The notes beneath the pieces were generated by a model. That model ran no database searches. It saw only the letters and a list, made by a program, of their open reading frames with translations, and was not told where the DNA came from. 4,783 nucleotides of DNA, from assembly GCF_003334815.1 (NCBI RefSeq), contig NZ_QOWO01000075.1; one strand, 5' to 3'. Positions 201-4,783 of this stretch are shown in pieces. Made by a program: the position numbers and the translations under genes. How positions within the stretch are numbered: position 1 is the stretch's first letter; the number at the start of each line of letters is the position of its first letter. This DNA comes from Escherichia coli (GTDB lineage: Bacteria; Pseudomonadota; Gammaproteobacteria; Enterobacterales; Enterobacteriaceae).

Positions 201-626
201 ATGCAGTATGCGAAACCTGTCACTCTGAACGTTGAAGAGTGCGACCGCCTTTCCTTTCTGCCTTACCTGTTTGGCAACGATTTTCTGTATGCCGAGGCGT
301 ATGTGTACGCGCTGGCGCAAAAAATGATGCCGGAATATCAGGGAGGCTTCTGGCATTTCATCCGCCTGCCGGATGGTGGCGGTTACATGATGCCGGATGG
401 CGACCGTTTTCATCTGGTCAACGGTGAAAACTGGTTTGACCGCACTGTGAGTGCTGATGCCGCAGGTATCATCCTGACTTCCCTTGTGATTAACCGCCAG
501 TTGTGGCTGTACCACGACAGCGGGGATGCGGGACTGACACACCTTTACCGGATGCGTGATGCGCAGTTGTGGAGCCACATTGAATTTCATCCCGAATGTA
601 ACGCGATTTACGCAGCACTGGACTGA
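201..626 (+). CDS. klcA: Anti-restriction protein, ArdB/KlcA family (141 aa)
   Basis: ATG at 201 preceded by GGAGG (189-193, 7-nt spacer). Translation carries family-typical blocks: [36 protein letters not shown] and C-terminal AIYAALD. The 141-aa length fits this family; the upstream in-frame start at 84 has no RBS and would give a poorly coding GC-rich extension. Confidence 0.85.
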
Positions 627-1092: not shown

Positions 1093-1283
1093 TGAATATC
1101 AGCACGGAAACCCGCGAAATTCTGCGTAATTACAGGGCCGTGATTAATGCGCGGCGTCGTGAAATGGGGCAGAAACCGCTCACCACCGCGCAGATTGTTG
1201 ATGAAATCTGTGATTTTGTGGCGAATCAGCAGGCGGTTTTCCTCGGTGGTCACTACATCCTTCAGGGCAGCAGGCACAGGTGA
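1092..1283 (+). CDS. Small hypothetical protein, 63 aa, translationally coupled to the upstream ORF
   Basis: TAATG stop/start overlap at 1090-1094; GGGGAG at 1078-1083 with 8-nt spacer. No recognisable motif; called on context and coupling only. Confidence 0.5.
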   Translation: MNISTETREILRNYRAVINARRREMGQKPLTTAQIVDEICDFVANQQAVFLGGHYILQGSRHR

Positions 1284-1290
1284 TACAGGG

Positions 1291-1310
1291 CAGGCGGTGG
1301 AGGCCGCCTG
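1291..1310 (+). other. GC-rich hairpin just downstream of the 63-aa ORF stop (7-bp stem CAGGCGG/CCGCCTG, 6-nt loop)
   Basis: Inverted repeat 1291-1297 / 1304-1310 seen directly; begins 8 nt after the stop at 1281-1283. Confidence 0.45.
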
Positions 1311-1448
1311 TCAGCCCGCGCGAAAACCCCTGGCAGGCTGGCGCCTGCCGGAAGGGATGCGGGCCACGCTGGCGCGTCGCCCGTTACCCTTCCCGTTTGT
1401 GATGTGTCCGGAATGTTTTTTCCTGATGTTATGTTTCTGTGGTTACTG

Positions 1449-1477
1449 TTCTTCTTCTTCTTCTTCCTCTTCTTTCC
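1449..1477. repeat. Polypyrimidine simple-repeat tract containing (TTC)6 at 1449-1466
   Basis: Direct reading: ttcttcttcttcttcttc followed by ctcttctttcc; pyrimidine-only on the + strand for 29 nt. Confidence 0.9.
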
Positions 1478-1837
1478 GTTCCTCTCCTGTTTATGCCTTT
1501 TCCGGGCGTCCCCCTGGCGGGGCGGGCTGTCGTGAACGGAGCCAGCGGAGCTGTCTCCGCCCTGGCGGGCTTCCATCCCTGACGCAAAACCCCGGGTTTG
1601 CAGCGACCGGAACGGTCGCGCCACCCTTGTCGCGCCGTGGCCTGCGCTCCTGGCATCCCGGCAAAAAGACGCCGGGATGTAAGGCGCAACGCCGTTTCGC
1701 GCACGCGCTCTCCGTCGTTGCGGCGGGTCCCTGCTCATTGCCTGCCGGGTGCCACACACCCGTATGAGTCCCTGTCGCCGGGGGCTGATACAGCCACAAC
1801 CTGCCGCACTGACTGTCCAGGGTAAATGAACAGCCCA

Positions 1838-1873
1838 CAAAATTTTTTACCCAGAACCCGGTAAAAAATTTTG
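1838..1873. other. Perfect 14-bp AT-rich inverted repeat (CAAAATTTTTTACC / GGTAAAAAATTTTG) with 8-nt spacer
   Basis: Arms 1838-1851 and 1860-1873 are exact reverse complements. Flanked by a further imperfect pairing, 1813-1821 with 1882-1890 (8 of 9), suggesting a longer imperfect hairpin centred near 1855. Confidence 0.8.
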
Positions 1874-2252
1874 CGTTCTGCCCAGGACAGGTGCGTCAGG
1901 CCGTGGCAGTGATGCCCCTTGCGGCGAAGGTTCTCAAACGGGTGAAGTTCATACCACAGGGAATACAGCAGCAGGTTCCCGCGAAACGTCAAAACCGCGG
2001 CTCCCGAAACTCAACGGGTGATGTTCTTTAAAAATCAGGATTTATTTCAGGCTCCGGCAATACGCATTTATGTGTTCTGTCAGCATCCTGCTGACAGGTA
2101 ATGAGAACGCAGGAACAGAAGGAGGAATACACCGGAAAACGTCAGATGCAGATATGAAAAAAGCAGGTCAGGGACCTGCTTAATCCACGCCGAAGAGACT
2201 GTGCAACCAGTCTTTAAGGCACTGTTACCAACCTGTCATAAGGTATCCATTT

Positions 2253-2483
2253 ATGACTGTAAGCATTGTTTCACCTTCCGCAGCGGCTGTAAAGCCCCGT
2301 CGTCATACCCGTTTCAGACGCGAAGACATCCCCGCGCCGGAAATTGACCCCGTGCTGAAAGCCTTCGGGCGACACATTGCCCGGAGTTTTCGCCGGGGGC
2401 GTGGTGTACACATCCCCGCCATGAAAAACACGGCTTTCGGGCAGGTGCTCCGCACACTCGAACTGAAACGCGCTTTTAACTGA
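2253..2483 (+). CDS. Small arginine-rich hypothetical protein, 76 aa (possibly DUF905/UPF0401-like; unverified)
   Basis: ATG 2253 with weak SD (AAGG 2240-2243, 9-nt spacer); first ORF downstream of the structured element; co-oriented. Many R/K residues (KPRRHTRFRRED, RSFRRGRG). No motif recognised with certainty. Confidence 0.55.
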   Translation: MTVSIVSPSAAAVKPRRHTRFRREDIPAPEIDPVLKAFGRHIARSFRRGRGVHIPAMKNTAFGQVLRTLELKRAFN

Positions 2484-2491
2484 TGAGGTGA

Positions 2492-2511
2492 GCCGCCCCG
2501 CGAGGGGCGGC
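2492..2511 (+). other. Intercistronic GC-rich hairpin (8-bp stem GCCGCCCC/GGGGCGGC, GCGA tetraloop)
   Basis: Perfect inverted repeat 2492-2499 / 2504-2511 between the stop at 2481-2483 and the RBS AGGAG 2523-2527 of the next gene. Uses the same octamer pair as the 636-654 hairpin, in swapped arm order. Confidence 0.6.
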
Positions 2512-2534
2512 AACAGACAGAAGGAGAACATTTT

Positions 2535-3896
2535 ATGACATTATCAGCAATCACCATGACCGCCCCGGAAGCCGCCAGCCCGGTGCAGATGTACCGCGCG
2601 ACCTACTCACCGGATGATAACAAACTGCGCCTGTATGCCGCGTCACGTCTTGACCCGGAGACGTATAAAAAAGTGCATGATGCCGGTTTTCGCTGGGCAC
2701 CAAAACAGGCGCTGTTTGTCGCGCCAGCCTGGACACCGGGCCGGGAAGACGTGCTCCTCTCACTTGCCGGAGAGATTGAGGATGAAGACAGCACGCTCGC
2801 TGAACGTCAGGAAGCACGGGCGGAGCGGTTTACCGGATACAGCGGAAAGCGGGCCAGTGAATCCGCACAGGCACTTGATGAAGTGGAAAGACTGGCCGCG
2901 ATGATCCCGCCCGGTCAGCCCATTCTTGTGGGGCATCACAGCGAACGCCGCGCCCGTCGTGATGCGCAGCGTATTGAAAACGGCATGAAACGTGCCGTGA
3001 TGCTCTTTGAACGTGCGGAATACTGGGAAGAACGGGCGCGGTCGGCACTGCTTCACGCGAAGTATAAAGAACGCCCGGACGTTCGCTGGCGTCGTATCAA
3101 AAAAATCGAAGCGGATTTGCGCAAGGCTGAAAAGACCATCGCACAGTCGCAGAAATATCTGACGATGTGGCGGGCTGAATCGCTGGATCTGAATATGGCA
3201 AAACTCATCAGCAGTCATGACCATATCAGCGCCTGTTTCCCGCTGGATACGTATCCGCGCCCGGCAGAAAAAAGCCAGTATGAAGGGAGCCGGTCGTTAT
3301 GGTCGGCCCTGGATGATGACATCATCACCACGGAGCAGGCCCGCGAAATTGCGATCCGCTGTCATGAACGGCAGATTCAGCATCAGCAACGCTGGGTTAA
3401 CCACTATCAGAACCGCCTGATCTATGAGCGTGCCATGCTGGACGAAAGCGGCGGCGTGGTTACCCGGACACAGGATTTTGAGCCGGGCGGACAGGTTTTC
3501 AGCCGGGGCGAGTGGCTGACCATCATCCGCGTGAACAAAAGCAACGGGGCGGTGAGTTCAGTCACAACGCCGAATTACAGTTTTCTCGGGTACAGCGGCA
3601 CGATGAAAGTGACGCCCGATCGCATCACGGACTACAAAGCACCATCGGCAGAAGAGGCTGCCGTCGCCAGTCAGGCCGCGAAGCGTCCGCCGGTAGTCAA
3701 CTATCCGGGGGAAGGTTTCCGGGAAATGACAAAGGCACAGTGGGCCGCCCTGCCCCGGGACTGTAAGGCCGTGCGCAGTGTGGCAGAGACAGAAGACCAC
3801 GGGGCATACCGCTACCGCCGCACAATGGATAATAATTTCCGCCTGGTGAGTGTGTATATTACCGACATGAAAATCACGGAAATCCCACAGAAATAA
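2535..3896 (+). CDS. Protein of unknown function, 453 aa (possibly DUF3560-type leading-region protein; unverified)
   Basis: Long ORF with RBS AGGAG at 2523-2527 and 7-nt spacer to ATG 2535. Central highly charged, probably helical segment (ERQEARAERF ... RRARRDAQRIENGMKRAVMLFERAEYWEERARSALLHAKYKERPDVRWRRIKKIEADLRKAEKTIAQSQKYL). No catalytic motif recognised by eye. Confidence 0.9.
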   Translation: MTLSAITMTAPEAASPVQMYRATYSPDDNKLRLYAASRLDPETYKKVHDAGFRWAPKQALFVAPAWTPGREDVLLSLAGEIEDEDSTLAERQEARAERFTGYSGKRASESAQALDEVERLAAMIPPGQPILVGHHSERRARRDAQRIENGMKRAVMLFERAEYWEERARSALLHAKYKERPDVRWRRIKKIEADLRKAEKTIAQSQKYLTMWRAESLDLNMAKLISSHDHISACFPLDTYPRPAEKSQYEGSRSLWSALDDDIITTEQAREIAIRCHERQIQHQQRWVNHYQNRLIYERAMLDESGGVVTRTQDFEPGGQVFSRGEWLTIIRVNKSNGAVSSVTTPNYSFLGYSGTMKVTPDRITDYKAPSAEEAAVASQAAKRPPVVNYPGEGFREMTKAQWAALPRDCKAVRSVAETEDHGAYRYRRTMDNNFRLVSVYITDMKITEIPQK

Positions 3897-3901
3897 GGTA
3901 T

Positions 3902-3927
3902 ATCCCCCCGGGAAATCCCCGGGGGAT
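3902..3927 (+). other. Intercistronic hairpin containing two CCCGGG palindromes
   Basis: ATCCCCCCGGGAAATCCCCGGGGGAT: outer 7-bp stem 3902-3908 / 3921-3927, a C-C mismatch, inner 3-bp stem 3910-3912 / 3917-3919, loop AAAT. Lies between the stop at 3894-3896 and the RBS GGAG 3931-3934. Confidence 0.5.
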
Positions 3928-3942
3928 GACGGAGATAATGAC

Positions 3943-4506
3943 ATGCACAGTCAGTTAAGAGAACGTATCCGGCTGCTGCGCGCAAGGCTGGATAACGCCG
4001 CACCGGTTGCTGAAATCCGGGCTGAATCTCAGCTTTTTGTGACACCTGCCCCGGTCTGTGATCGCCTGGTGACGCTGGCGGAAATCAGCAATCGTGATCA
4101 CATTCTGGAACCCTCTGCCGGCACCGGGGCCATACTGCGGGCGATTCGGGATACCGCGCCGGAGGCCATGTGTGATGCGGTGGAGAGCAACAGCGGGCTG
4201 GTCCGGTATCTGCGGGAAAATTTTAACGGTGTCAGGGTACAGTGTGGCGACTTCATGGAATGGCAGCCGGTGCAGTATTACAGCCGGATTATCATGAATC
4301 CGCCGTTCAGCCACGGGCAGGATATCCGGCATATCCTGCGGGCCTTTTCCCTGCTGCGTCCGGGTGGCGTTCTGGTCGCCGTCTGTCTGAACGGGCCACG
4401 CCAGCAGGAGAAGCTGTTACCGTTTTCTGACATCCGCGAGGAGCTGCCGCGCGGCACGTTTGCTTATACCCATGTTCCGACGATGATTATTCGTCTGCGC
4501 GCCTGA
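3943..4506 (+). CDS. Orphan SAM-dependent methyltransferase, 187 aa (amino-methyltransferase fold; N6-adenine/N4-cytosine DNA MTase-like, no recognisable target-recognition domain)
   Basis: RBS GGAG 3931-3934 with 8-nt spacer. Motif I (AdoMet binding) ILEPSAGTGAIL near residue 55; motif IV NPPF near residue 119 (IIMNPPFSHGQD). Motif order I then IV and the small size indicate a minimal MTase core. No adjacent restriction endonuclease gene in the window. Confidence 0.85.
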   Translation: MHSQLRERIRLLRARLDNAAPVAEIRAESQLFVTPAPVCDRLVTLAEISNRDHILEPSAGTGAILRAIRDTAPEAMCDAVESNSGLVRYLRENFNGVRVQCGDFMEWQPVQYYSRIIMNPPFSHGQDIRHILRAFSLLRPGGVLVAVCLNGPRQQEKLLPFSDIREELPRGTFAYTHVPTMIIRLRA

Positions 4507-4577
4507 TGACACAGGCAGGCGGGAGGATAAATGCCCGTCTGCCCGTGCCGGGAAAAAGACCGCGCGCCGGTGGCGCT

Positions 4578-4609
4578 GAAAGGGGCCGCGCTGACGCGCC
4601 GCCCCTTTC
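4578..4609 (+). other. GC-rich hairpin downstream of the MTase (13-bp stem with one mismatch, 6-nt loop), contains GCCGCCCC
   Basis: GAAAGGGGCCGCG (4578-4590), loop CTGACG, CGCCGCCCCTTTC (4597-4609). Followed only by a short TTTC, so at best a weak terminator. Confidence 0.5.
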
Positions 4610-4654
4610 ATTGCGCGGACGTTCTGCTGTGGACTTCTGTCTTTTCAGAACGGT

Positions 4655-4783
4655 CATTTGTCTGTTACTGATGATGTTGTTGTTCCTGCTACTGCTACTG
4701 CTACTGTTCTTCTTTTTTCTGCTGCTCTGATTACTGTCTGTTTTGTTGTTCTCCTGCTTATGCCTTTTCCGGGCGTCCCCCTG
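4655..4783 (+). promoter_or_regulatory. Start of a second copy of the Frpo/ssi-like element (truncated by window end)
   Basis: 4751-4783 (ctcctgcttatgccttttccgggcgtccccctg) matches 1484-1516 at 32 of 33 positions. Upstream there are shared ttactgttcttctt and ctgatgtt blocks plus a different simple-repeat tract. Confidence 0.6.
4670..4750. repeat. Compound simple-repeat tract: (GAT)2(GTT)3 at 4670-4684, (CTGCTA)3 at 4686-4703, T-rich pyrimidine run
   Basis: Direct reading of the sequence; differs in unit and copy number from the tract at 1449-1477 in copy 1. Confidence 0.9.

Follow-up and report, generated by a model that had tools for sequence, protein, structure and literature searches.

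A klcA/ardB-family anti-restriction gene behind a probable class 2 single-stranded DNA promoter element in the leading region of an IncF plasmid from Escherichia coli

Introduction

Proteins of the ArdB/KlcA family are carried by conjugative plasmids and act against Type I restriction-modification (R-M) systems. ArdB of plasmid R64 relieves restriction by type IA, IB and IC systems and by two Type I systems of Bacillus licheniformis, whatever their recognition site, and is inactive against BREX and type III systems (PMC10149784). Its inhibition of EcoR124I and EcoAI in vitro is incomplete (PMC10149784); BlihIA is fully inhibited in vitro by a 30-fold excess of ArdB(R64), and a protein from which Asp141 has been deleted is inactive (PMC12429846). 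In work on KlcA and ArdB homologs, each of the four Type I families was inhibited in vivo; there was little anti-modification, ClpXP was not required, and no inhibition of EcoKI was seen in vitro (PMC2836571). The favoured but unproven idea is that ArdB blocks translocation or cleavage by HsdR through contacts with DNA and the R-complex (PMC10149784). Anti-restriction activity depends on expression level (PMC11602122), and high codon adaptation has been reported for the family.

Early expression of these genes during conjugation has been traced to promoters that work on single-stranded DNA (ssDNA). In transconjugants klcA is induced from a class 2 ssDNA promoter, with a transcription start mapped by 5' RACE in pESBL and conservation of the promoter in F (PMC12672017). 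The element was named ssp2 (bioRxiv 10.64898/2026.01.09.698686) and was found independently as 'Frpo3'; its function has been published for F and pESBL (PMC12672017; bioRxiv 10.64898/2026.01.09.698686; 10.1101/2025.04.03.647016). In F, where the klcA copy is called YfgB in a preprint from the Lesterlin laboratory, ssp2 drives yfgB and stalls complementary-strand synthesis until UvrD resolves the hairpin. Its deletion lowered transfer 5-fold into EcoKI+ recipients, from 21-fold to undetectable into natural E. coli strains, and 36-fold into a recipient with the type II system EcoGIII, a loss that was reversed when ssp3 took the place of ssp2 (bioRxiv 10.64898/2026.01.09.698686). Promoters of the class 1, Frpo type were described by Couturier 2023 (PMC9849209). 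Among the protein families enriched in leading regions, Samuel et al. 2024 list KlcA-like proteins (family 9), DUF1380 (family 7) and DUF3560 (family 28).

The klcA gene and its product

We analysed a stretch of 4,783 nt of Escherichia coli DNA (contig NZ_QOWO01000075.1, assembly GCF_003334815.1), referred to here as the window. The coding sequence at 201-626 (+ strand) comprises 141 codons followed by TGA and is the ortholog of yfgB of F, yfeB of R64 and yciB of R100-type plasmids; we call it klcA. The start at ATG 201 is sound, with the Shine-Dalgarno sequence GGAGGA (189-194, + strand) placed 6 nt 5' of it and the same 426-nt coding sequence present in the RefSeq annotation of every related plasmid examined. 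A longer reading from GTG 84 (180 aa, 117 nt more) was rejected: that codon lies inside the promoter hairpin, lacks a Shine-Dalgarno sequence and is used by no annotation. Comparison with the alleles of F, R64 and pRM10466 gave pairwise dN/dS values of 0.04-0.16, and klcA is therefore under purifying selection. An identical copy of the protein is encoded on other plasmids.

The original prediction assigned the product to the ArdB/KlcA family from short conserved blocks, and proposed a Pfam search as a check. That search returned a significant match to Antirestrict (PF03230, E 2.4e-26, model positions 2-92 of 92), and membership of the ArdB/KlcA anti-restriction family is confirmed. Sequence matches to KlcA (2KMG, E 2e-18) and ArdB (2WJ9, E 2.3e-8) in the PDB and to the 'anti-restriction protein' family PHROG 10132 (E 1.7e-20) agree with it; a search of NCBIfam with KlcA gave no match. 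All five blocks occur in the translation of 201-626, as FLPYLFG (residues 19-25), GGFWHF (48-53), DGGGYMMPD (58-66), SADAAGI (84-90) and AIYAALD (135-141). In an alignment of 21 sequences they coincide with columns that are invariant (P21, W51, G59, G60, D66, N77, G89 and I136) or nearly so (among them F19, L20, F24, G25, G48, G49, H52, S84, A85, A87, A88, Y137 and D141), which bears out the claim that they are characteristic of the family. This alignment combined close and 65-80% identical relatives with KlcA(pBP136) and ArdB(CFT073) from the PDB. Because the best 120 of 333 matches in the protein search were all close relatives (at least 64% identity), the family-wide reading of the motifs depends on these two sequences, which were added by hand.

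An AlphaFold2 model built on the same alignment reached a pLDDT of 79.7, with residues 1-23 disordered and of low confidence. Compared with the whole PDB by Foldseek, it gave significant matches to 2KMG (TM 0.79) and 2WJ9 (TM 0.72) only. The protein does not belong to the ArdA/Ocr class of DNA mimics: it has no Pfam match to ArdA, its fold is matched by KlcA/ArdB alone, and its net charge is only -9.

The upstream promoter element

The DNA in front of klcA (about 1-166, - strand) corresponds by homology with the F and R64 elements to the gene-proximal half of ssp2. The interior of the hairpin occupies about 1-100 and the proximal arm about 100-166, of which 146-166 form a perfect basal stem. 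The strand that folds is the transferred one (the - strand of the window). The distal arm of the hairpin lies upstream of base 1, so that the edge of the window cuts the element. With only the proximal arm in the window, ssp2 in the source molecule is presumably intact, judging from its relatives. On the distal arm, TTGCAT...TAAGAT may represent the -35 and -10 elements.

Positions 1-200 are nearly identical to the DNA 5' of F yfgB and of R64 ardB and 95.9% identical to the copy 5' of R64 ardA, and 113-165 match F 10481-10529 in inverted orientation. When the full elements of F and pRM10466 were folded as the transferred strand, each formed a long hairpin whose basal stem is perfect over 21 bp (z -7.0 and -5.8, respectively). 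Six copies keep the stem, with compensatory changes in both partners of 18 pairs, and these copies include loci in which KlcA is only 66-73% identical. A consensus scan found no sigma-70-like promoter on the + strand anywhere in the window, though all six genes lie on that strand; the three promoter-like sites that it did find are all on the - strand. The absence of + strand sigma-70-like promoters fits expression from promoters on single-stranded DNA.

Organisation and plasmid context

The DNA of the window comes from the leading region of a conjugative plasmid of the IncF (F-like) group. As a whole it matches more than 5000 PLSDB plasmids at 90-97% identity, mostly conjugative plasmids of Escherichia, Klebsiella, Salmonella and Shigella, and it was found in 3869 of 5426 complete E. 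coli genomes (about 70%), nearly always on plasmids. In complete plasmids klcA is preceded by maintenance genes, DUF1281, a DNA methylase, DUF1380 and a hypothetical gene, and is followed by DUF1380, orf63, in some cases orf76, DUF3560 and a methyltransferase, and then ssb, a parB-like gene, psiB, psiA, hok and oriT/traM. The array has a single orientation, klcA running the same way as ssb and psiB, and klcA lies on the strand templated by the transferred strand, between the maintenance genes and ssb-psiB-psiA-hok-oriT/traM. The leading-region setting that had been proposed from the letters alone is borne out by this order.

Within the array, klcA is followed after a 46-nt gap by a DUF1380 gene, and this by orf63 through a TAATG stop/start overlap; that these three genes form one transcription unit behind ssp2, with klcA first, holds. 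The earlier suggestion that klcA heads the gene block is right for this unit and wrong for the window as a whole. In complete plasmids same-strand DUF1281, DNA methylase and DUF1380 genes lie upstream, so klcA is not first in the array, and the DUF3560 and methyltransferase genes, with orf76, are a separate unit with its own Frpo-type promoter and no operon partners of klcA.

Variants of klcA that are 66-73% identical (loci L004, 4001-4969, and L006, 4001-7623) carry an upstream spacer of 450-510 nt with the same hairpin. The genes downstream differ: in L004, ardA comes directly after klcA, with a homolog of the theta subunit of DNA polymerase III, whereas in L006, a locus of the Edwardsiella type, orf76, DUF3560 and the methyltransferase gene come next with nothing between. 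Modules have thus been shuffled within the island. We considered DUF1380 and orf63 as obligate partners of klcA and rejected the idea, both being absent 3' of klcA in these two loci. The modular synteny therefore points to the neighbours as fellow cargo of an anti-defence island and not as partners of klcA. The view of the neighbours as anti-defence candidates stands, as a proposal already published for families 7 and 28 (Samuel et al. 2024); any fixed tie of those genes to klcA does not.

In the 46-nt gap 3' of klcA, an 8-bp hairpin made entirely of G and C (GGGGCGGC-GAT-GCCGCCCC) occupies 636-654. It was considered as a terminator and set aside; it has no T-run, for which reason it is probably not one, and it is absent from the list of the terminator scan. 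Similar G+C-rich hairpins without T-runs follow orf76 (2485-2512) and the methyltransferase gene (4577-4610). All three may serve in mRNA stabilisation or as single-strand structures.

Neighbouring genes and a second promoter

The second gene of the klcA unit (673-1092, + strand) encodes an acidic protein of 139 aa (pI 4.5), a weak member of DUF1380 (Pfam E 0.0012) that corresponds to YcjA and is named 'DUF1380 family protein' in RefSeq. It has no sequence relative in the PDB, the protein search returned only close homologs, and its AlphaFold2 model (pLDDT 57.6, pTM 0.35) was too poor for a fold search. The third gene, orf63 (1092-1283, + strand), encodes a basic protein of 63 aa and is annotated as a hypothetical protein in F, R64 and pRM10466.

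A separate transcription unit starts at a class 1, Frpo-type ssDNA promoter repeat at 1414-2023 (- strand), whose hairpin on the transferred strand spans about 1730-1975. The repeat is one of three copies per plasmid, each of about 580 nt and 85-98% identical; it is 89.9% identical to the copy upstream of ssb, 89.3% to the copy after hok and 82.5% to the Frpo1 region of F. It is colinear with the Frpo2 region of F, and its transferred-strand fold has a z of -8.2. Relative to F it is an extra copy, one that drives orf76-DUF3560-methyltransferase rather than ssb. The start of the next Frpo-type repeat (4699-4783, - strand), which precedes ssb in complete plasmids, is cut by the end of the window. 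A pyrimidine-rich tract stands before each repeat (1432-1516 and 4699-4783); these tracts include a (TTC)8.7 microsatellite at 1449-1474 and (CTGCTA)3.5 at 4686-4706, and are the probable site of the indels by which BLAST alignments of different plasmids are broken up. In the Frpo2 region of F, RefSeq has a 'hypothetical protein' on the - strand (L002, 11808-12164), the equivalent of which in the window is a 192-aa open reading frame at about 1262-1840 (- strand); it lies inside the structured promoter repeat and is probably not a real gene.

The module served by this promoter (2253-4506, + strand), which F lacks, comprises orf76 (2253-2483), the DUF3560 gene (2535-3896) and a gene for a 187-aa methyltransferase (3943-4506). 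The DUF3560 protein has 453 aa (Pfam DUF3560, E 1.1e-36) and no sequence relative in the PDB; NCBIfam gave no match for the products of orf63, orf76 or DUF3560. The methyltransferase carries the N6-adenine motif NPPF, matches M.TaqI (E 9.5e-6) and DNA methyltransferase families of PHROG, and resembles the M.TaqI-type catalytic domain and the methylase domains of giant phage proteins. It shows no obvious target-recognition domain and is too short to hold one. Its gene always lies 3' of the one for the DUF3560 protein (453 aa), a possible source of DNA binding for the enzyme. Conservation of the trio extends to plasmids of the Edwardsiella type.

A full-length match to the Rfam family AS-pc01 ('antisense to pHK01_035') lies on the - strand at 2158-2258, scoring 68.7 bits (E 5e-11), below the gathering score of 79. 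On the same strand a promoter-like TTTACA-17-AACAAT with TG lies at 2293-2265 and a hairpin resembling a terminator, followed by a T-run, at 2181-2161; the two bracket the match, which overlaps the ribosome-binding site and start (2253) of orf76. Because the template for such an RNA is the + strand, it could be made only from double-stranded plasmid, and a possible role is therefore to shut down the orf76-DUF3560-methyltransferase unit once the plasmid is established.

Proposed role and alternatives

We conclude that 201-626 is very probably the klcA/ardB anti-restriction gene of an IncF leading region, expressed early against Type I R-M. The anti-defence role foreseen for it agrees with measurements on ArdB(R64), a protein of 92% identity that relieves Type I restriction (PMC10149784, PMC12429846). 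Type I anti-restriction, the need for Asp141, zygotic induction, the mapped start and the roadblock are taken from the literature on homologs that are 92-98% identical, and the allele in the window would be expected to behave as they do.

In the scheme we propose, the transferred strand (the - strand of the window) would enter the recipient as single-stranded DNA, and the inverted repeat of roughly 250 nt just 5' of klcA, ssp2, would fold into a hairpin resembling a double-stranded promoter. From it host RNA polymerase could transcribe klcA, probably together with the two small genes that follow, while no complementary strand yet exists. As in F, the hairpin may stall complementary-strand synthesis until UvrD melts it, which would prolong early expression. 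The 141-aa globular KlcA/ArdB protein, no DNA mimic, would thus accumulate before the plasmid is present as unmethylated duplex, and would block restriction by Type I enzymes of all families at any recognition site, possibly, as is still a hypothesis in the field, at the translocation or cleavage step of HsdR. Modification would be largely spared, so that the host methylase could modify the plasmid, and conversion to duplex DNA would then turn the promoter off.

Two other readings of the function deserve attention. KlcA could chiefly or additionally inhibit another helicase-nuclease defence such as Cas3, with Type I anti-restriction only a part of its activity. AcrIC11, a homolog of KlcA in sequence and fold, blocks degradation by Cas3 but not binding of Cascade (PMC10810201), which fits inhibition of a helicase-nuclease step and not of target recognition, and parallels ArdB, which blocks restriction and not modification; a preprint of 2026 treats ArdB/KlcA/AcrIC11 as one family. 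We regard this reading as unlikely for the gene in the window. Somewhat less likely still is that native klcA brings no meaningful anti-restriction benefit and that the protection credited to the ssp2 unit comes from the hairpin roadblock, from DUF1380 and orf63, or from both. Clean deletions of klcA in pB10 and of ardB in RIP113 caused no detectable change of restriction in conjugation (PMC11602122), and the effect in F could belong to the downstream genes because the promoter, and not klcA, was deleted. Inhibition of type II systems is not known for the ArdB family, and the loss with EcoGIII, reversed by ssp3, is not expected of ArdB and therefore leaves some room for a contribution from downstream genes. 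Against this reading stand the strong purifying selection on klcA, the presence of the window in about 70% of complete E. coli genomes, the codon adaptation reported for the family, the direct activity of the 92% identical ArdB(R64), and plasmids in which DUF1380 and orf63 are missing 3' of klcA.

A chance reading frame or decayed pseudogene at 201-626 is so improbable that it hardly needs to be entertained, given family E-values of 1e-18 to 1e-26, full length, an intact C-terminal Asp, a strong Shine-Dalgarno sequence, the low dN/dS and the identical protein on other plasmids. We retain the early-expressed Type I anti-restriction gene as our reading. A broader version, for which we see a small but real chance, is that the klcA unit protects beyond Type I, whether through KlcA acting on a Cas3-like helicase-nuclease or through the DUF1380 and 63-aa proteins acting as inhibitors of other defences. 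If one or both of these small proteins did so, the 36-fold loss of transfer into the EcoGIII recipient when F lacks ssp2 transcription would be explained.

Most resistance and virulence plasmids of the IncF and IncI groups in Enterobacteriaceae carry the gene, which helps such plasmids to cross restriction barriers between strains. The gene itself, the ssDNA promoter, its early induction and the idea of an anti-defence island for the neighbours have all been published between 2009 and 2026, and the copy in the window adds nothing new to them.

Comparison with known systems

The closest named relative is YfgB of the F plasmid (NC_002483, 56755-57180), with which KlcA shares 138 of 141 residues (98%), the three substitutions being A109V, H113Q and S125R. 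The two loci also agree in the promoter DNA 5' of the gene and in DUF1380 and orf63 3' of it, being colinear over 1-2023 of the window, and yfgB sits behind ssp2/'Frpo3', as klcA probably does here. The two loci differ beyond that point: in F the Frpo copy after yfgB leads directly into ssb, whereas the window has an additional Frpo copy together with orf76-DUF3560-methyltransferase in between.

ArdB of R64 (yfeB; RefSeq NC_005014) is of equal length and identical at 130 of 141 residues (92%, 11 substitutions), and the C-terminal Asp141 is kept in KlcA of the window. The two downstream genes are also shared, and so, as far as the gene-proximal half shows, is the class 2 promoter upstream; R64 is an IncI1/MOBP plasmid and that of the window is IncF/MOBF. 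More distant are KlcA of the IncP-1beta plasmid pBP136 (2KMG, 39% identity) and ArdB of E. coli CFT073 (2WJ9, 32%), which have the Pfam family, the fold and the conserved motifs in common with the protein described here. The klcA of IncP plasmids belongs to the kor-regulated kilC operon (klcA-klcB-korC) and is not known to have an ssDNA promoter in front of it. The copies of CFT073 and of the CP4-57 type are genes of chromosomal islands, unlike klcA of the window. Another candidate for the closest named protein, KlcAHS of KPC plasmids, was set aside on the basis of its description, as only 43% identical to KlcA136 and on another backbone.

ArdA and Ocr share with KlcA a biological purpose and a position in the leading region, and ArdA of IncI1 also stands behind a promoter of the class 2 type, but their fold and mechanism are unrelated to those of KlcA/ArdB. 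ArdA and Ocr are DNA mimics that attach to the HsdMS core and block modification as well, whereas KlcA/ArdB are globular, do not mimic DNA and spare modification (PMC2836571).
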